The position numbers and the translations under genes are program-made. Of a stretch of DNA of 64,000 bases, positions 3,463 through 58,906 are shown piece after piece. The first letter of the stretch is position 1. Every line of letters begins with the position of its first letter. The notes under the pieces were generated by a model. The model did not search any database. It had not been told where the DNA came from and saw only the letters and a program-made list of their open reading frames with translations. The stretch is from a phage: NCBI GenBank assembly GCA_025812035.1, contig GCA_025812035.1_4719.1. One strand, 5' to 3'.

Positions 3463-3490
3463 AAGCCTGTCCTTCGGGGCAGGCTTTTAT
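3463..3490 (+). terminator. canonical rho-independent terminator (10-bp stem, UUCG tetraloop, U-tract)
   Basis: AAGCCTGTCC-TTCG-GGGCAGGCTT followed by TTTAT, 6 nt after the stop of 2636-3457. Confidence 0.7.
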
Positions 3491-3564
3491 GCTGTTATTA
3501 TTGGGAATAAGAATTAACAAAACAGGAAGATGGTGTGGATATAACACAAAGGAGGGAAATGATT

Positions 3565-13970: not shown

Positions 13971-14246
13971 TTACGCAGCTTTACAGCTTGCGTAAACCAC
14001 AATCGTTCCGTTGTTGATTGCCTCAACAATTTCCTGGGTCAGTTTGGTCGCTAATTTATTATCCGTCCCCGGTACGTAATAACCTTCTCCTGTTTCAGTG
14101 ATTAAGCGATAACGTACTAATCCCACCGTACGCTCAACGCGTACCACCTTTTCAAGTTTGTGTTTGATGATCTTCGTCAGACTGATTGTATCTGACGTGT
14201 AGATCGCTTTATAAACTTTGTTCTTTGCTGTCGGTTTCATCAACAT
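13971..14246 (-). CDS. hypothetical protein (91 aa)
   Basis: ORF in the array. Confidence 0.5.
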   Translation of the reverse strand: MLMKPTAKNKVYKAIYTSDTISLTKIIKHKLEKVVRVERTVGLVRYRLITETGEGYYVPGTDNKLATKLTQEIVEAINNGTIVVYASCKAA

Positions 14247-15102
14247 GGTTTCTGTTTTCCTCGGTTTGTTGTGGTGCTAGGTCAGAGATATCCCATCGGA
14301 CATAACCGATCTCACTGATTCGCTCTGCTACCTCTTCGGTTTGCGAATTACGACTAATCATCGGTAACCATTCTCCGTGTCCGGTGATCTTGACTTCCGT
14401 AAGCTGTAAACTCATGTTCCAACGAACATCGTAAACCAACGCATAGCCAAGAGGATGAACAAGTCCATCTTGGGCGTACATCGTCAAAAGACCTCTTACA
14501 TCTTCGCTACGAAGTGATTTCATGGATGGGCGTACGCGTTGAAGTCTATTTGTGATATCGTATCCCAACTCGATGTCTTTCCAACCTGTCATGGCGTAAG
14601 GAATAACGTTACGACGACGGAGCTGATAGTTGTGAGTGGTTTCTTCGGCGGTAAGGTGTACCCAACCGAGATCGCTGTATGCGACAAACCGCACCGTATC
14701 ACCATCGATTGCAGTATGCCCATCTAACGCTGCTGCAACACCGTGGCCTGCGTAATACGGCGGAATAACGTTAATCATTTTAATACGACTTTCTTGACCG
14801 GTATGGTCAGGATCGATATGTGCGTAGAAACAATTATGGCTTACAGGGCGACCTTCCGCCATACGCCCACGGAAGACAGGGTCCTGCATTCCGAGCGGAT
14901 GGTAATACGCGAGCTGTTGCTCTTCACCTTCCCCGATTACCAACAAACGATCTTCACGACTTGGCGTACTAGGATCTTTCACTGTGATGTAACTAACAAC
15001 CGGTTTCAGGTTGTTTAAAATGTCCTCTGTAAGTTTCTCTAAATCCGATGCTGCGTAAATACGGTTAACAACGGTGTTTACAAGGTGTTTTGATAAGCTC
15101 AT
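14209..15102 (-). CDS. paralog family H protein A (unknown function)
   Basis: Shares YHPLGMQD, a second HPLGY motif and C-terminal GYVRWDISDL with 15184-16074. Confidence 0.65.
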   Translation of the reverse strand: MSLSKHLVNTVVNRIYAASDLEKLTEDILNNLKPVVSYITVKDPSTPSREDRLLVIGEGEEQQLAYYHPLGMQDPVFRGRMAEGRPVSHNCFYAHIDPDHTGQESRIKMINVIPPYYAGHGVAAALDGHTAIDGDTVRFVAYSDLGWVHLTAEETTHNYQLRRRNVIPYAMTGWKDIELGYDITNRLQRVRPSMKSLRSEDVRGLLTMYAQDGLVHPLGYALVYDVRWNMSLQLTEVKITGHGEWLPMISRNSQTEEVAERISEIGYVRWDISDLAPQQTEENRNHVDETDSKEQSL

Positions 15103-15183: not shown

Positions 15184-16074
15184 TTACGGCTTCAAATCCG
15201 AAATATCCCAGCGTACGTAACCTGTGTGTTCGATATCCTCGACCAATTGCTCGGTTTGATTTTCAACACCGACAACGGGAACCCAATTCAACTGTTGGCT
15301 ACGTATACCGATGTTAACCTCGACACGCTGCAGATCATCATTCCAACGAACCCCGGCCGGTTTCACAAAACCCAGCGGATGGATAAAACTAAGATCGTCG
15401 CTGAAATCACGAAGAACGCGCAATGTATCGATGGATGAAGGGTTATCATAGCGAACAGGACGTACGCTTTGCAGTTTATCGTATACCGCTCGAGCTGCGC
15501 GCTCGTCACGCCAGGTCGTCATGTATACCGGTTTTATACCACGTTTTAGAAGATGATCGATCTGGATCGCGATGTTATCGTGAACATACATGCAGCCCTG
15601 TTCGGTTTCGGTGTTGTAACCACCATCTTCTAACCGGTTCGGATACGTCAGATGGTCTACCGTCACAGCAACTCCTTCAGCGAACGTGTTCAACGGAAGA
15701 AAACGTTGCAGACTCGTTATCGGATAATCGGGCGACATCCCAGGACGGATATGCGCCATCGTCCCCCAACTGTCAGGGAAGCCATGTCGGTATATGTATT
15801 GCCGGAATACCTCATCCTGCATCCCTAACGGATACCATCGTGCAAGCCGCTGTTGCTCACCATCCTGAATAACAAAAAGCATTTCTTTGCGATTCGGCCA
15901 TCGATGATGTTCCACGGTCAAGCCATCAACAACCGGTCTTAAATTGTTCTTGATGTGTTCTGGAAGTTTATCCACCTCTTCACGACGATAAAAACGATCG
16001 ATGACGATGATGTCAACCTTCCCATGATTGAACCAGTTCATGTTAACTCCCTCTGTGGTGCGAAAACAAAACAT
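15184..16074 (-). CDS. paralog family H protein B (unknown function)
   Basis: See A. An alternative ATG at 16041 has SD GAGGGA. Confidence 0.65.
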   Translation of the reverse strand: MFCFRTTEGVNMNWFNHGKVDIIVIDRFYRREEVDKLPEHIKNNLRPVVDGLTVEHHRWPNRKEMLFVIQDGEQQRLARWYPLGMQDEVFRQYIYRHGFPDSWGTMAHIRPGMSPDYPITSLQRFLPLNTFAEGVAVTVDHLTYPNRLEDGGYNTETEQGCMYVHDNIAIQIDHLLKRGIKPVYMTTWRDERAARAVYDKLQSVRPVRYDNPSSIDTLRVLRDFSDDLSFIHPLGFVKPAGVRWNDDLQRVEVNIGIRSQQLNWVPVVGVENQTEQLVEDIEHTGYVRWDISDLKP

Positions 16075-16333: not shown

Positions 16334-17106
16334 GCGAACGTTTCTCCTGTAACGTGTTGTGGGCGTTGCAGCATGGTAGCATCCCAGCATACCAGCTTGC
16401 TTTTCTCAAGCATCTTCCGCGCCGTATCAACGCTAACGCCAGGATGCATGACAGGTAGCCAACGTTCGTTAAGCACCTTGGCTTCCAGGCGTTGCTTGCG
16501 CTTATTGTATTGTACCTCGCTAACCCATGCGTAACCGAAAGGATGGATAACCCGTGGGTAGTAACGTTTAAGCATCATCAGTCTTTGCTGATAAAGCTTA
16601 TCGGAACCCTCACCAACGAATAAGGCAACCCGTTCCAACCGCTTGGTGTAATACGTTCCGGTGGTATGATTGATCCAACCAGGAAGCGTTCGTACATCAT
16701 TTTCGAGTGTTCCTGATACGTTATGCACTTCACCGCTATACACCGTCCCAACAACCTGATTCGTTGCGTCCACCATCGACCGTGGCAAAGCATCCGCGGT
16801 AGGATACAACCATGCATCCCCAAGCTGCTCTCCCGACGCAAGTACCCGTAATCCGCTTGCGCTCACCCGCAACGGATGCTGGCTCTTATGCGCACGCAAC
16901 TGCACCACAGATAAGTCTACCGGATGGGCGATGCAACAGCCACGCTGACGGAACAGTCCAACCTCACCATCCACCCCTTCGATCATGCTTCCTTCCGAAC
17001 CGTTCCACCAACGTTTAACCTTCACGCATTCGGCTTGCACCGTTTCAGGCAACGTTAAATAATCGTGTTCAATAAACACCACATCAAAAATCAATGCTTC
17101 TTTCAT
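16330..17106 (-). CDS. paralog family H protein C (unknown function)
   Basis: Single HPFGY motif and related C-terminus. SD AGAGGA upstream. Confidence 0.65.
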   Translation of the reverse strand: MKEALIFDVVFIEHDYLTLPETVQAECVKVKRWWNGSEGSMIEGVDGEVGLFRQRGCCIAHPVDLSVVQLRAHKSQHPLRVSASGLRVLASGEQLGDAWLYPTADALPRSMVDATNQVVGTVYSGEVHNVSGTLENDVRTLPGWINHTTGTYYTKRLERVALFVGEGSDKLYQQRLMMLKRYYPRVIHPFGYAWVSEVQYNKRKQRLEAKVLNERWLPVMHPGVSVDTARKMLEKSKLVCWDATMLQRPQHVTGETFA

Positions 17107-17191
17107 CTAAAAAGATCCTCTGTTTTTTCACGTTAATTAAACAACGTATTGATTTCTATTCGATAGCAATACGAACATCGTACGTACGCAT

Positions 17192-17215
17192 CACTTAGGT
17201 AATATAGCCGTGAAA
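17192..17215. promoter_or_regulatory. conserved 24-nt motif (copy 2; CACTTAGGTAATATAGCCGTGAAA)
   Basis: One mismatch to the consensus. About 90 nt from the start of 16330-17106. Confidence 0.45.
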
Positions 17216-17858
17216 GGATTTGTGTTACAGAAAGGGTTTTGTTGTGTTTTAAGAAGGGATGGATAGTGATGTTATCTGAAAGGAGGATTTCAAGAAAGGT
17301 CTTGATTGAAGTAGGTGGAGTAAGTGAAGAGGTGAATAAACGAGAAGGGTTAGTTTGGTTGATGTAAGATGTTATCTTGTTATTGTTTTCATGTTTATCT
17401 TAGGTTATGTCTTAATTGTTCATATTCCTGATTGTTTAAGTTGTCTTATTTATCTTGTTTATATAAATAAAATTAAATTATAAAGTCAATCAACATGCTT
17501 ATAAGTTGGATAACTCAAAAAAACCATTTGTGATACTCTTCTTCACGTTGTTCATCAGAGTATCTCGTCTATACTCATTGCATTCGTATACGACATAACC
17601 GTTATACGCTAACGCTACGCTTATAGCTTGATAACTCTAAGGATAAAAACATAAACTCGCTTCGCTCGTTTAGTTTTTCTTTTTCTTAGAGTTATCTTGT
17701 TGCTCGTCTCTAAAGGACTTCGCTCCTCCCCCGTCCCCCGAAGGGGCCGAGGTCGTGGAAATTTTACTTTCCAAATACATTTACAACATCTGTAAACTTT
17801 TACTCCAGGTACTTAATCTTATCATTAGAAATTATCAAAGAGAATAATGACAGCATAA
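17216..17858. other. large noncoding region: candidate replication origin or noncoding RNA locus
   Basis: No ORF. C-depleted purine-rich stretch, AT-rich block (17455-17490), and five or more TTATCTT-type repeats. Confidence 0.35.
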
Positions 17859-17890
17859 CCTTCCTCCAACCCAACAGGGAAGGAGGAAGG
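17859..17890. terminator. conserved two-tier GC hairpin (family copy 4)
   Basis: CCTTCCTCC-AACCCAACAGGGAA-GGAGGAAGG, 3' of the 17906-18799 gene. Confidence 0.5.
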
Positions 17891-17905
17891 GAGAGATTAA
17901 TTCAA

Positions 17906-18799
17906 TTAATCGACAGTGTTATAACCGAATACAGCTTTACCGTAAGTGTGAGTACCGTCGGTTAACGACACCACTAGTACGTGGTTGTATGCGTCGTTAA
18001 CACCCTTGTCAGTAGACCCTGTGGTAGCTCCGTTATAGACAAAGGTAGCTGTTTGCAGGTTGGCTTTCAGCTCGTTAGTGATATCATCGCTGACACCCGT
18101 CTGCTCTTTGATCAGCGTAGTCAGGTTACCTGCCAGGCTTTCACCGATCTTGGTTTCGTTACTGGTGATCGCCTGTAAACCTGTAGTGTAGGAGCTGAAG
18201 TCTAACGGATAGGTTAACAGACGCGCTGAGGTCTTGGTACCATCACCTTCATCAACGTAGGTTAAGTTACCCAGGTTGGTAACCTTGATGATGTTAGACA
18301 GATCCAGCGTTGTGTTATAAACTTTAACTTGAACAGAGCCGTACCACGCCAATGAATCTTCTTTGGCTTCCAGGGTGATCGTCTGGATACCCGATTGCTC
18401 AAAGGTAACCGGCGTAGCTAACGTTTCGGCTTTGATGTCTTTTGCTTTATCCAGGAACTTATCACCAGATGGCGTGATCATACCGTAGCGTTTCGCTACA
18501 AGGTCAACCACATCACCGATGGTGGTGTTCGCATCAACGTTAACACGCACCGCGATCTTCTGGAACCACTTAGCCAGATCCAGACGATGGTAGGTAACAT
18601 CGCGGTTATTGAAGTAAGGAGTACCTTCACCAGGACTGAGTGTTAAAGTTGCTTCTGGAGCAGAAGCGCTTTTAGATTTAAGGACGTATTTAAGGTCGGT
18701 ATATTTAAAGCTGGCACCAGTGTCGGCGTTAAGCTGGTTGATCTCATCAACGATAAGCTGCCATGGTGTTTTTAAAGTAAGCGATACTTGAGCTGTCAT
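17906..18799 (-). CDS. probable abundant virion protein (unknown function)
   Basis: Optimised codon usage and a monocistronic layout. ORF track start at 18832 is TTG; the ATG at 18799 has SD GAGGAAG. Confidence 0.6.
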   Translation of the reverse strand: MTAQVSLTLKTPWQLIVDEINQLNADTGASFKYTDLKYVLKSKSASAPEATLTLSPGEGTPYFNNRDVTYHRLDLAKWFQKIAVRVNVDANTTIGDVVDLVAKRYGMITPSGDKFLDKAKDIKAETLATPVTFEQSGIQTITLEAKEDSLAWYGSVQVKVYNTTLDLSNIIKVTNLGNLTYVDEGDGTKTSARLLTYPLDFSSYTTGLQAITSNETKIGESLAGNLTTLIKEQTGVSDDITNELKANLQTATFVYNGATTGSTDKGVNDAYNHVLVVSLTDGTHTYGKAVFGYNTVD

Positions 18800-18854
18800 T
18801 TTCTTCCTCGATAGTTTGTACATCACTCTCAAAAGATGTAAGTGTTTACAGAAA

Positions 18855-18873
18855 TTAATATATTTTATATTAA
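18855..18873. promoter_or_regulatory. AT-rich perfect palindrome TTAATATA-TTT-TATATTAA in divergent promoter region
   Basis: 8-bp inverted repeat with 3-nt spacer between two divergent, codon-optimised genes. A TATAAAATA element is adjacent. Confidence 0.4.
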
Positions 18874-18942
18874 ATGTGAATATTATGGAGAACGACTCCG
18901 AATCTCCTTTTCGACCATCAAAAAATCAGAGGACACACAATC

Positions 18943-19485
18943 ATGGCCTTAGACTTTAACAAAGCAGCGAAATCCCTTCTGCTCGATCTCATCAACACCA
19001 AAGCAACCCGCGCACTGTCCGAAGAAGAACTGCAGTTCGGTACTCCGACAGCATCTTCCGAACATGAAAAGAACACCGTTATCCAGCTGAATGCTGCGCC
19101 TGAAGCAGCTAACCTGCAGGGTACCTAGCAGTTCTTCTACAATCGTCTGGCTCTGTCCGAAGTTTTCGCTGACGTAACCGGTGATGTTACTTTCGAACTG
19201 CCGCACGGTACTGACAGCATTCAGGCTTCTGAGCTGGTAAGCAAGCTGGTCACCAAATTCGGTCTGGCTTCCCTGACCGGTGAAATCAATGAAGAAACCT
19301 TCCAGCTGTCTGCGGGTACTGTTGGTCAGGTAACCCTGACTGCGATCGAGGGTGGTATGGTATATACCGGCACTCTGCAGGTTGCACTGACTTATGCAGC
19401 AGCACCAAAAGACGAACTGGCAACCGTTCTGGCGAATAACGTAGCTGAAGGTTTCGAGAAACCGACCGTTAGCGTTGTTGGCTAA
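18943..19485 (+). CDS. highly codon-optimised 181-codon gene interrupted by in-frame amber codon (TAG at 19126-19128)
   Basis: SD GAGGA, ATG at 18943, frame open to the double stop TAATAA at 19483-19488 except for one TAG. No ATG in the 119 codons after the TAG. Confidence 0.6.
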
Positions 19486-19682
19486 TAAGCGCATAGAGCA
19501 ATAGTATGGGTTTTGTACAGCTCGGCTATTGCTCTTCTACAATTTGGTTGTAACAATCTGCGTGGTTGCACGCTTATCTTTTTCATTGAGCGCTTCGTAT
19601 GAAGCGTAGTGTTGAAAGGGTTGTGGATCTCCTCAAGCGGCCAGGGACCCAGACCAACCTAAATAAACACAAACAAATCTTA

Positions 19683-19720
19683 AGCCCCTCCTCAGCCCTT
19701 ATCGGGTTGGGGAGGGGTCT
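19683..19720. terminator. conserved two-tier GC hairpin (family copy 5)
   Basis: AGCCCCTCC ... CCCTTATCGGG ... GGAGGGG between convergent genes. Confidence 0.45.
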
Positions 19721-19781
19721 TATTACGTCTTTATGCGTTTCGTTCGTTCTGGTGTGCTTTAGAACGGTTTATGGTAGAGTT

Positions 19782-20417
19782 TTATTCAACACTGAAACCA
19801 TTCAAGCAGATAGCTTCATAACGCTTACGTTCACGGCGTTTGCGTGCTTGCCATCCGTAAATGAATTTCTCGTCTTTCTCACGACGCTCAGCCAATTCGA
19901 TGTAATAGGTGCTCTGCATGTCCAGCATCGCATCGATGAGATAATCCTTACCGGTTGCGCCACGCTTAGCGATGTAGGCATCAAGAGCCGCCAGTGTTTT
20001 GGGACCCATTGCGCCATCAGCGTCGATATTTTTCCAGTAAGTTTGGCGGTTGTTCATGACGTTCAGATAACGCTGAAGGTTCTTAACCGGTACGGTTTTG
20101 CCTGCGTTGATGCCCAGGTCAAAGAGACGATCAGCCAAGAACACGGAACGTTTCATGACCTCATCAAGCTTCATCTTATCCCAGAAGTGGGTCTTGTAGA
20201 TGAAGAACGCCATTTCCGTGGTAAGGTTACGCATATTACCGTCCCACCCGAATTTCGTTTTCAGCGTGGTTTTGTATTGGTTGGCAAGCGCTTGCGTAAT
20301 GCCGTGGTTAGTGATTCCGCCCGAGTCATCGGGATCGTCGACGTAACCTGCTTCGATGCTAGTTTTATCATGAATGATAAATTCGCAAGTAAAATCTTTT
20401 TCAGTAATCTTGGCCAT
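19782..20417 (-). CDS. endolysin, GH108-type lysozyme with PG_binding_3 domain
   Basis: EAGYVDDPDDSGGITNHGITQ matches the GH108 N-terminal signature. DADGAMGPKTLAAL matches the peptidoglycan-binding motif. Confidence 0.8.
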   Translation of the reverse strand: MAKITEKDFTCEFIIHDKTSIEAGYVDDPDDSGGITNHGITQALANQYKTTLKTKFGWDGNMRNLTTEMAFFIYKTHFWDKMKLDEVMKRSVFLADRLFDLGINAGKTVPVKNLQRYLNVMNNRQTYWKNIDADGAMGPKTLAALDAYIAKRGATGKDYLIDAMLDMQSTYYIELAERREKDEKFIYGWQARKRRERKRYEAICLNGFSVE

Positions 20418-20542
20418 TAGAACTCCTCGTTGGAATAACGTTTTAGAGGAACAGGGAAGCCCTAGAACACGATAAACGATTTAATCCAGGCAAACCCAGA
20501 CTAAACTTTTCTAAGCGTTAGAACGCGTTCTAGAGCGCAATA

Positions 20543-22591
20543 TCAAATACCTTTGGTTCCCTTCACGTGATGTGCAATTTCTTCAACCATTGCACGCAAC
20601 GCACGAAGCTGCTGGTCGTGTTCGTACCAACCACCCAACAGAACCCCGCTGTACACCATGGTGTCAAGACTTAACAGTCCTTTATCTGATACGTTGATCA
20701 TTTCCGGGAACTGTTCTTGAACACGCTGTGCGATGACACCGATCTTCTCTACATCAGGATCGTAGTTGTGACGGAAACGGGCAAGCCCGCTGCGCGCCAT
20801 TTCACGTAAACGTTCGCTAAGAGATTCCGGATGGTCTTTCAGGTAACGGATGTCATGTTTACTACGCTCATCTGAACGGATGTATGCGTTAGGAACATCG
20901 ATGTTACTGTTGAAGTACAGCGCGCTACCACCACCTGCAGAGTTACCCCAATAGAAGCGTGTGATCTCGCCACCACCATTTTCCGTGATGATAACATGTT
21001 TACCTAAACGCGTGCCACCATTGCCGTCAACGAAGACCAGTTTGTTTCCACTGTAAGAACCCCAGAACAAACGGGTATCGATGATGTGCGTTGCAGCGAG
21101 ACGAGCGTTACGCGGTGTAGAATACACAGTGTTAACATCTTGCTGTGCTTGCGCATCGGAAGCGATACCGTAGTTCTGTACATTACCTAACCCCACCTGC
21201 GCTTTCGTAACAGCGTGTGGGTTATCTCGACGGTTAGCGTGAGCGTTAACCAGATCGCCCGCCAGTTTTTGAATAGCCCAGTTGGTAGACTGTGGTGTCA
21301 TGTAGCGGTTCGTTGCAGAACCACCTTGCGCCTCAGCTTGGTTAGCGGTTGGGTAGTTCTCAACGCTTCCTAACCCCACTTGTGCTTTAGACACTTGGTG
21401 CGGGTTGTTCTTGTCAGCGATGTGTGCATTAAGCGGAACTAACGCAAAGGTCTCGATGGACGCTTTGGTTGTGTTCGGTGCCATTAATCGGTTAGCTGCA
21501 ACACCGGCACGCGCTTCATCCTCAGACGCCATTGGGTAGTCTTGCACGTTACCCAACCCAACCTGCGCTTTGGTTACTCTGTGTGGGTTGTTGTAATCGG
21601 CTTTATGTGCGTTAAGCGGAATCAATGCGAACTGTTCGATCGCTGCAACGGTACGTAGCGGCGTCATGAAACGGTTGTTCGCGGTTCCGCCCTTCGCCTC
21701 GCTATCCGAAGCGGTTGGGAAGTTATCAACGTTCCCAAGGTTAACCTGTGCTTTGGTGACGCTATGCGGGTTATCTTTACGGTTAGCGTGAGCATCGACT
21801 AGGTCACCAGCCAGTTTAGCGATTGCCCATCCAACCGTTTGTGCGGTCATGTATCGGTCGGGTGCGGTACCGGCTTCTGACTCCGCCTTGTTTGCGGTAG
21901 GATAGTTCTGTACATTACCTAACCCAACTTGGGCTTTGGTGGTTTCGTGCGGGTTATCGGTACGGTTAGCATGCGCGTAATGCAGATCGGTAAGATTTTT
22001 ATCCGCTGCTTGCATGTCTTTGCGTAACTGATCGATTGCTGCCCAGAGACGGTTATCGGACGCAGCGTCACCGATAAGTATCGCGGCTTTCAGCGAATAG
22101 ATCGCTAAGCAAAGATGTTCGGTACCGTAGATAGCACTAACGTGGTGGATGTGTGGTTCAGGCGGATAAAGTTCCGGTTTGTTCTTGATATCATCCCAGT
22201 TGATCGGTCGATCGTCAAGTTTGAGTTCTTCGATAGCCTGATATAACGCGTCAATAAGACTTACGTAAACACCACCGATGATACGATAGTCGTTAACTAA
22301 CGTACCCTCGATGTCGTCGTTGATGATGGCGATGGCTGCACAGATTTCTTTACCAGCGTAAAGTGTAGCGTCCTGATACAAGAAGATGGGTTTATAATCC
22401 ACGCCTCGCACCAGTGTCTTACCGGTAAGCTTTTCGGTGATAACCAGACTTTCGGTGAAGAACGGTCCGCCATCGAGGGCGTAACATTTATTCTCGGTTC
22501 GTGGAACGGTATGCTCTTCACCAACGATGTGGTTGCTATCGAGTGTACCGGTCCAGTCCTCGGGGTACTTCAGGGTAATTGGTGTTGACAT
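20543..22591 (-). CDS. tail fibre protein with C-terminal intramolecular chaperone (peptidase S74-like) domain
   Basis: Five or more repeats of NPHxVTKAQVGLGNVxNY. C-terminal SDERSKHDI and IGVIAQRVQEQFPEMI match the self-cleaving chaperone domain of endosialidase-type fibres. Confidence 0.8.
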   Translation of the reverse strand: MSTPITLKYPEDWTGTLDSNHIVGEEHTVPRTENKCYALDGGPFFTESLVITEKLTGKTLVRGVDYKPIFLYQDATLYAGKEICAAIAIINDDIEGTLVNDYRIIGGVYVSLIDALYQAIEELKLDDRPINWDDIKNKPELYPPEPHIHHVSAIYGTEHLCLAIYSLKAAILIGDAASDNRLWAAIDQLRKDMQAADKNLTDLHYAHANRTDNPHETTKAQVGLGNVQNYPTANKAESEAGTAPDRYMTAQTVGWAIAKLAGDLVDAHANRKDNPHSVTKAQVNLGNVDNFPTASDSEAKGGTANNRFMTPLRTVAAIEQFALIPLNAHKADYNNPHRVTKAQVGLGNVQDYPMASEDEARAGVAANRLMAPNTTKASIETFALVPLNAHIADKNNPHQVSKAQVGLGSVENYPTANQAEAQGGSATNRYMTPQSTNWAIQKLAGDLVNAHANRRDNPHAVTKAQVGLGNVQNYGIASDAQAQQDVNTVYSTPRNARLAATHIIDTRLFWGSYSGNKLVFVDGNGGTRLGKHVIITENGGGEITRFYWGNSAGGGSALYFNSNIDVPNAYIRSDERSKHDIRYLKDHPESLSERLREMARSGLARFRHNYDPDVEKIGVIAQRVQEQFPEMINVSDKGLLSLDTMVYSGVLLGGWYEHDQQLRALRAMVEEIAHHVKGTKGI

Positions 22592-28432: not shown

Positions 28433-28536
28433 GATGCGCCCTTTACAAGTTGTTAGTAAGAGTGGGATACCCTGGGGTATCCTGTGTTAACAGCGGTAAA
28501 ATATTACTGTAACTATAAAATAAGGGGGCCTCTCCC

Positions 28537-45203: not shown

Positions 45204-45347
45204 CCTCCATCAGATTGAAAACTATCACGCATAATGCATTTCCCTTTTCTTGTTCTTATCGAGCCGACAGCCGACGGTTTCAGCATCGTTCCTAGCGCGA
45301 GAACGACCTTACGTGTTGTCTATGCCTTATTCATCGCAGGCGTCTGT

Positions 45348-45371
45348 CACCTAGGTAATGTAAGCGTCAAA
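45348..45371. promoter_or_regulatory. conserved 24-nt motif (copy 3; CACCTAGGTAATGTAAGCGTCAAA)
   Basis: Part of the ~90-bp cassette 45348-45437 with a family hairpin. Confidence 0.45.
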
Positions 45372-45403
45372 TTTTTTCTATTTGCAACGATAAACAGCAT
45401 AGA

Positions 45404-47757: not shown

Positions 47758-47906
47758 TGAAAGTATCCTTTACAGAATTAACTTATATAAGTCGGTCGAT
47801 AGACCATAGCGTACACGCGTGCATGCGCCACTATAGTATCAGTAAACACTTACCGTTGTTTAGGCTGTGATACAACACTAAAAATGCCGCATAACTTTTT
47901 CCTACG

Positions 47907-53451: not shown

Positions 53452-53507
53452 GATTGTATCCTCGGTTGTTAAGAGAAATTTACAGCGATAACAGTAACCG
53501 TTGTTAT

Positions 53508-53531
53508 CACCTAGGTAATATAGTCGTGAAA
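53508..53531. promoter_or_regulatory. conserved 24-nt motif (copy 4; CACCTAGGTAATATAGTCGTGAAA)
   Basis: Part of the ~90-bp cassette 53508-53597. Confidence 0.45.
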
Positions 53532-53565
53532 TAAACTGGATTAACAAGAATAAGACAGCATAGAA

Positions 53566-58818: not shown

Positions 58819-58906
58819 CGCAGATTCCTGTTTGAAAGATAAGATATCACATGATGGTTGACAGCATAAAGCCCACCCCGAAGGGCGGGCTGTTTATGCG
58901 TACTGG

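Follow-up and report, generated by a model that had tools for sequence, protein, structure and literature searches.

The 143-bp spacer between two divergent virion genes in the 64,000-nucleotide stretch of phage DNA analyzed here (the window) belongs to a known class, the late/middle promoter regions of the chimalliviruses. The spacer is probably a control region shared by the two genes, the orthologs of gp22 and gp23 of Escherichia phage vB_EcoM_Goslar. In this arrangement, a phiKZ-type TATG motif would serve gp23, a GATG start linked to a 12-bp dyad of the form GTAAA-N2-TTTAC would serve gp22, and an AT palindrome would be incidental. The palindrome, which was the feature emphasized in an initial sequence-only reading, is as first described an ordinary one, and the analogy to phage T4 drawn in the same reading is wrong for the Chimalliviridae.

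The window comes from a nucleus-forming jumbo phage that is related to Goslar and belongs to the family Chimalliviridae: Goslar matches positions 17000–21000 with 90.8% identity, and no comparable match was found elsewhere in the phage collection. Both genes flanking the spacer encode proteins that match the Pfam family DUF7941 (PF25613), with E = 2e-51 for the gp22 ortholog and E = 1.6e-20 for the gp23 ortholog. A structural and mass-spectrometry study of the Goslar virion reports ~580 copies of gp22 and ~2140 copies of gp23 per particle and names the two proteins as paralogs that may build a fiber cloud (bioRxiv 10.64898/2026.04.21.720040). In Goslar, the genes for capsid, portal, and sheath belong to the late genes and require the phage nucleus (10.1101/2023.09.20.558163). 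In the window, the capsid gene is a 740-aa gene that encodes a major capsid protein of the phiKZ type (PF25620). Ranked by codon bias (Nc) among 56 genes of the window, the capsid gene stands first, the gp23 ortholog second, and the gp22 ortholog eighth. The proposal that the spacer is a divergent promoter region between two codon-biased genes is supported, both being highly expressed virion genes. The gp23 ortholog carries an in-frame TAG at codon 62 that is unique to the window and beyond which the frame is intact; the same codon is CAG (Gln) in Goslar and in five other relatives. A sequencing error or a recent nonsense mutation could explain this amber codon; alternatively, the phage could be an amber mutant, to be rescued by a suppressor host that inserts Gln.

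Conservation was assessed in eight genomes: the window, Goslar, two IMG/VR contigs, and four metagenome contigs. The relatives are 88–95% identical to the window, and footprints of conserved positions are therefore of limited depth. The features of the spacer, its flanking genes, and the related sites discussed below are collected in Table 1. Across the entire window, scans for Rfam families and tRNAs gave no match.

Table 1. Positions of features in and around the gp22/gp23 spacer and of related sites in the window, with the number of alignment columns that vary among the eight genomes.
Feature	Position	Strand	Variable columns	Remarks
gp22 ortholog, DUF7941 virion protein	17906–18799	−		297 aa; 88% identity to Goslar gp022
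Divergent intergenic control region	18800–18942			143 bp, 31% G+C; between gp22 and gp23 orthologs
Ribosome-binding site GAGGA, gp22 ortholog	18805–18809	−		Seen in sequence
Conserved block TTGAGAGTGATGT	18820–18832	−	Near-invariant	Candidate gp22 start at G18821 of GATG
Dyad GTAAGTGTTTAC	18838–18849		1/12	Variable column is a spacer base; arms invariant
AT palindrome TTAATATA-TTT-TATATTAA	18855–18873		5/19	7-bp insertion in one genome
TATAAAATA, inner part of palindrome	18861–18869	−		In 7/8 genomes; not a T4 late promoter
10 bp between palindrome and TATG			5/10	
TATG, core of phiKZ-type late promoter	18884–18887	+		Predicted gp23 transcript start at G18887
Stem-loop GGAG-AACGA-CTCC (predicted)	18887–18899	+		Begins at predicted +1
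TATG plus stem-loop	18884–18899		0/16	
Ribosome-binding site GAGGA, gp23 ortholog	18929–18933	+		Seen in sequence
gp23 ortholog, DUF7941 virion protein	18943–19485	+		180 codons; amber codon at 19126–19128
Perfect dyad GTAAACTTTTAC	17792–17803			In 799-bp non-coding stretch downstream of gp22 ortholog
Dyad GTAAAATATTAC	28496–28507			Divergent region of gp29/gp30 orthologs
CTTATATAAG palindrome (first described as TTATATAAG)	47782–47791			In predicted capsid mRNA leader
TATG plus stem-loop GGTC-TATC-GACC (predicted)	47794–47808	−		Predicted capsid start at G47805
Second copy of 12-mer dyad, upstream of major capsid gene	47842–47853			Reads GTAAGTGTTTAC on the strand of the gene

On the gp23 side of the spacer, a TATG is found 56 nt upstream of the start codon and runs directly into a predicted stem-loop. 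The late promoters of phiKZ consist of a TATG from whose G transcription starts; every base of the motif is required in vitro, the −4 position matters little, and the downstream sequence is decisive, as in the promoter P119L (PMC4666361). The motif is read by the beta-lobe subunit of the polymerase (PMC12809450). In the eight genomes, the TATG and the sequence of the stem-loop are invariant and the two bases that directly precede the TATG vary, a pattern that fits these requirements of phiKZ late promoters (PMC4666361). The association of TATG with virion genes extends beyond this spacer. Upstream of the Goslar virion genes, TATG occurs 27 times in the sense orientation, compared to 14.0 times in shuffled sequences (none of 500 shuffles reaches 27), and 12 times in the antisense orientation. 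Upstream of the other Goslar genes, 50 occurrences are observed against 49.1 in shuffles, which is no enrichment. The spacer thus resembles phiKZ-type late promoters in having a TATG upstream of a late gene, gp23, and the motif is tied to virion genes genome-wide.

The stem-loop that begins at the predicted +1 is also seen at other virion genes. A perfect stem of at least 4 bp that starts at the G of TATG is present at 7 of the 27 virion-gene sites, compared to 3.2% of TATG sites genome-wide. The corresponding Fisher P of 1.3e-5 is optimistic, as the pattern was noticed first and then tested on the same Goslar genome. The seven genes are gp7, gp23, gp41 (capsid), gp88, gp161, gp214, and gp218 (sheath), and most of their products are among the most abundant virion proteins. 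The resemblance to phiKZ late promoters lies in the TATG upstream of virion genes and in the conserved downstream sequence (PMC4666361, PMC12809450). The difference is that the model late promoter P119L has no +1 stem-loop, whereas several of the strongest virion genes of the Goslar type have one. The combination of TATG with a stem-loop is a lead and not an established result. No description of this combination was found in the literature searched, nor of the dyad family to which the second conserved element of the spacer belongs.

This second element, the dyad, recurs throughout the Goslar genome. When one mismatch is allowed, 23 sites are found, of which 14 are fully intergenic in a genome with 7% intergenic DNA. 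Dinucleotide shuffles of the intergenic segments give an expectation of 1.15 such sites, with a maximum of 4 in 300 shuffles. The binomial P for intergenic placement is 3e-11, again an optimistic value, since the family was noticed first and then tested on the same genome. The intergenic excess is restricted to a spacing of 2 between the half-sites; spacings of 0, 1, 3, 4, and 5 yield between 0 and 2 intergenic sites each. Six of the sites lie in divergent gene pairs (gp22/23, gp29/30, gp79/80, gp144/145, gp245/246, and gp218/219), and further sites are located upstream of the capsid gene, gp214, gp69, an endolysin gene, and others. In the window, intergenic dyads begin at positions 17792, 18838, 28496, and 47842. 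The symmetry of GTAAA-N2-TTTAC is kept in all eight genomes and the site recurs in the genome, as would be required of an operator for a dimeric regulator. The dyad is therefore a candidate site for a dimeric factor or, alternatively, a candidate symmetric upstream promoter element. With a loop of only 2 nt, the dyad cannot fold into an RNA hairpin and would thus act at the level of DNA. On the gp23 side, the distance between the dyad and the TATG is 42.5, 43.5, or 50.5 nt in different genomes, and this variation makes a strict activator geometry for gp23 doubtful.

The closest known counterpart of the dyad is the middle-promoter motif of phiKZ, AAanTTACc, which is centered at about −24 (PMC4666361). 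Each half of the dyad reads AAAnnTTTAC and resembles this motif, and at gp22, gp245, and gp214 the center of the dyad is located 22.5–25.5 nt upstream of a conserved (T/R)ATG. Unlike the phiKZ motif, the Goslar-type dyad is a 12-bp element with a strict 2-bp spacer, its alignment to AAanTTACc is inexact, and it also occurs where no gene follows. No dyad was found in the intergenic DNA of 17 kb of phiKZ.

The gp22 side of the spacer has no TATG. Since phiKZ requires every position of TATG in vitro, the promoter class of gp22 is uncertain. The candidate start, G18821, is located 22.5 nt from the center of dyad GTAAGTGTTTAC, and no insertion or deletion separates the dyad from block TTGAGAGTGATGT in any of the eight genomes. 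The same arrangement is observed upstream of gp245 in Goslar, where the dyad variant GTAAACTTTTAC is followed by the same block, TTGAGAGTRATGT. A possible compensatory change in a hairpin of the gp22 leader, seen in one relative (L007), is weak because one of the two changes is the spacer base of the dyad. The string TTAATT(T)CTGTAAA, which is shared by the upstream regions of gp22 and the capsid gene, initially looked like a late-promoter box. A better explanation is that it represents the dyad flank in gp22 and a half-site together with the context of the ribosome-binding site (TGTAAAGGA) in the capsid gene; following this string led to the 12-bp dyad family.

The upstream region of the capsid gene provides a second instance of the arrangement at gp23. 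The two regions contain the identical 12-mer, GTAAGTGTTTAC, in the same orientation relative to a TATGG with a stem-loop. The center of the capsid dyad is 42.5 nt upstream of the G of TATG, a distance equal to that in Goslar gp23 and at one TATG site of the sheath gene. The capsid upstream region is near-identical in four genomes. The sequence-only reading had compared the spacer to a TTATATAAG element upstream of the 740-aa gene; the palindrome CTTATATAAG is indeed present there, but the real likeness between the two regions resides in the 12-mer and in the TATGG with its stem-loop. In the favored model, TTATATAAG is located downstream of the predicted capsid start site. In addition, the stretch of the capsid promoter that corresponds to the AT palindrome is G+C-rich, so that AT-richness is no shared requirement. 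On the far side of the capsid dyad, at 47858–47880 (+), a TTGTATCAC block resembles the TTGTACATCAC of the gp22 side (18815–18832) and hints at a divergent, possibly antisense, transcript into the gp42 ortholog.

The AT palindrome itself is a perfect 8-bp inverted repeat with arms at 18855–18862 and 18866–18873, as first described. Its interpretation as a true operator or as a bidirectional promoter core, a symmetric site for a dimeric regulator, is improbable. The position between two divergent genes and the perfect arms, which are seen in the window and in one relative (L015), would suit such a site. However, the symmetry is broken in the other six genomes: one arm is variable at each of its three outer positions, where as many as three different bases are seen at a single position, and a further relative (L008) has a 7-bp insertion, TATATAT, within the palindrome. 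In contrast to the dyad, the palindrome also fails to recur, as neither TTAATATA nor TATATTAA has another copy anywhere in the window. A search for perfect inverted repeats (arms ≥8 bp, loops ≤6 nt) gives 20 matches in the window, some of them nested at one locus, compared to 8.5 in shuffled sequences. The chance of such a repeat in this AT-rich 143-bp segment is 0.03, which speaks for the operator, but the chance that at least one of 30 intergenic segments holds one is 0.39. Folded as RNA, the palindrome gives a marginal hairpin (−2.3 kcal/mol, z = −1.8). The features of the palindrome are thus not clearly beyond chance. As the TATG with its stem-loop and the dyad are invariant or nearly so and the palindrome is variable, the symmetry of the latter is under no visible selection, and the palindrome is probably a poorly conserved AT-rich spacer with no specific site. 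Its inner part, ATATAAAATATA, is kept in seven of the eight genomes, which speaks for an operator, and an AT-rich upstream element may therefore still exist here. For the dyad, the alternative is that it has no role in transcription and serves DNA organization, replication, or packaging, or is the target of a nuclease or methylase, with promoters consisting of TATG-type motifs and unrecognized features. This explanation is unlikely, although less so than a palindrome operator. It would account for the roughly 4 of 15 listed sites (the 14 intergenic ones and one at a gene boundary) that have no downstream gene in either direction, for example in the 799-bp non-coding stretch and between a convergent gene pair, and for the differences among genomes in the distance from dyad to TATG. 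It is at odds with the location of most sites upstream of genes, six of them in divergent regions, with the fixed spacing to a conserved RATG block at gp22 and gp245, and with the likeness to the −24 middle motif of phiKZ.

Other polymerases have also been considered for the spacer. A T4-type late promoter, used by host RNA polymerase with a gp55-like phage sigma factor, was suggested by the TATAAAATA on the minus strand, which is one base off the T4 box TATAAATA. Although the resemblance is real, a T4 late promoter can be dismissed almost entirely. TATAAAATA occurs three times in the window, compared to 0.68 expected, with 5 of 100 shuffles reaching three copies, and one of these copies is upstream of the gp30 ortholog. 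The exact box TATAAATA has two copies in the window (17462 and 35995) against 2.27 expected, neither of them within 18800–18942, and it is absent from all 123 upstream intergenic regions that the 247 annotated genes of Goslar yield. With up to one mismatch, 13 matches are found in these regions, compared to 14.1 in composition-matched shuffles, and only 1 of the 23 virion genes that have such a region carries one. The sigma factor that such a promoter would need was not detected either: tblastn with T4 gp55 as the query, run on the complete Goslar genome and on the window, gave no credible homolog, the best match (E = 0.002 in a tiny database) being on the antisense strand of gp178. The T4 assignment was rejected on the absence of enrichment and the negative gp55 search. 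In addition, phiKZ-like phages transcribe their genes independently of host RNA polymerase, with virion and non-virion multisubunit RNA polymerases of their own (PMC7598289, PMC4666361), and genes for RNA polymerase beta/beta′ subunits are present in Goslar. The likeness to the T4 late promoter, which operates with gp55, gp33, and the gp45 clamp, amounts to a structural gene preceded by an AT-rich box of TATA-like sequence; TATAAAATA is one A longer, the box is not enriched, Goslar and the window show no credible gp55 homolog, and the transcription machinery is unrelated. A host sigma-70 promoter was rejected as well, as a consensus scan of 17000–20600 for −35/−10 hexamers spaced by 16–18 bp found no site within 18800–18942. 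The early promoters used by the virion RNA polymerase were examined through a consensus of ~39 nt derived for the Goslar-like lineage, TTAATcCAAaAnnTTTCAcGgCTAyATTACCTAgGTGAt. Its core, TATATTAC, is also present in phiKZ and marks the upstream regions of the Goslar chimallin gene and other early genes. The two copies of TATATTAA in the palindrome match seven of the eight bases of this core, and most Goslar genes are detectable already 5 min after infection, both of which would accord with variant early promoters. That assignment is nonetheless highly improbable. Goslar contains 12 clear sites that score 29–53 bits, one of them upstream of the chimallin gene, whereas the best score within 18800–18942 of a weight matrix built from these 12 sites is −8 bits. 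The region thus contains no early promoter: its palindrome arms differ from the early core by one base, the long flanking consensus is missing, and the minus-strand copy of TATATTAA is not kept in relatives.

The analysis shows the identities of the genes, the pattern of conservation, the enrichments of TATG and the dyad, and the failure of the T4, early-promoter, and sigma-70 readings, whereas the polymerase, the positions of the start sites, and any dyad-binding protein are inferred. The favored reading, a control region shared by gp22 and gp23, can be described as follows. By analogy with phiKZ, both genes would most likely be transcribed in the phage nucleus by the non-virion multisubunit RNA polymerase, without host RNA polymerase or a T4-like sigma factor taking part. 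For the rightward gene, gp23, the TATG at 18884–18887 would be the promoter, and the mRNA would start at G18887, which corresponds to position 16806 of Goslar, with the stem-loop (18887–18899) and have a leader of 56 nt. The stem-loop may contribute to promoter function or to the stability of the mRNA. For the leftward gene, gp22, which lacks a TATG, the best candidate start is G18821 of the conserved GATG, at about position 16741 in Goslar. The dyad GTAAGTGTTTAC may act like the phiKZ middle-promoter element at about −24 or may bind a dimeric phage factor, for which Goslar gp115, annotated as regulator-like, and gp119 (SANT/Myb) are candidates. The AT palindrome would be a tolerant AT-rich spacer between the dyad and the TATG, at −14 to −32 relative to the gp23 start, and its symmetry would be incidental.

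For the non-virion RNA polymerase of phiKZ, TATG is the only promoter element known; a promoter needs it, but it does not suffice. A more tentative extension of the favored reading is that the dyad, as a site for a dimeric phage factor or as a symmetric element, and the stem-loop that follows TATG might supply the specificity of the non-virion RNA polymerase at the strongest virion genes of Goslar-like phages. If true, the two elements would address how a 4-bp TATG defines a promoter inside the phage nucleus. The 12-bp dyad and the +1 stem-loop are two testable candidates for the missing promoter determinants in a model phage that infects E. coli.

Several further observations were made in the window. 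A second TATAAAATA is found at 28514–28522 (+), 7 bp from the dyad GTAAAATATTAC in the divergent region of gp29 and gp30, so that TATAAAATA and a dyad occur together in two virion-gene spacers. As a by-product of the promoter searches, a usable early-promoter consensus for Goslar-like phages is now available. It identifies four sites in the window (40–51 bits), all on the minus strand, at 2509–2547, 17190–17228, 45346–45384, and 53506–53544. The second most enriched upstream motif, a G+C-rich hairpin followed by TTATGCYGT, was for this reason considered as a promoter and rejected. It behaves as a conserved family terminator: it immediately follows the stop codon of gp22 and precedes no gene. 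Examples of the motif are found at 17850–17892, 3488–3495, 53555–53562, and 58861–58868; TATGCTGT occurs eight times in the window, compared to 1.75 expected; and the phiKZ counterpart, a hairpin with TTTATGTTGT, is near-identical. Away from virion genes, many of the TATG occurrences in intergenic DNA are due to this terminator motif. A de novo search for enriched 8-mers (one mismatch, after masking) returned only AT-richness, terminators, and ribosome-binding sites.

Two other parts of the window were also noted. On the minus strand, 14209–15102 and 15184–16074 are tandem paralogs of 297 and 296 aa that are 35% identical and have no Pfam match; in Goslar, this stretch is missing or differs, and it varies among the relatives. 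Downstream of gp22, 17107–17905 comprises 799 bp with no credible gene and no Rfam match, and it is unannotated in Goslar as well. This segment holds one of the early promoters (17190–17228), at least seven GTTATC/GATAAC iterons in both orientations, the perfect dyad GTAAACTTTTAC, and the terminator hairpin of gp22. It could represent an origin-like locus or one for a non-coding RNA.
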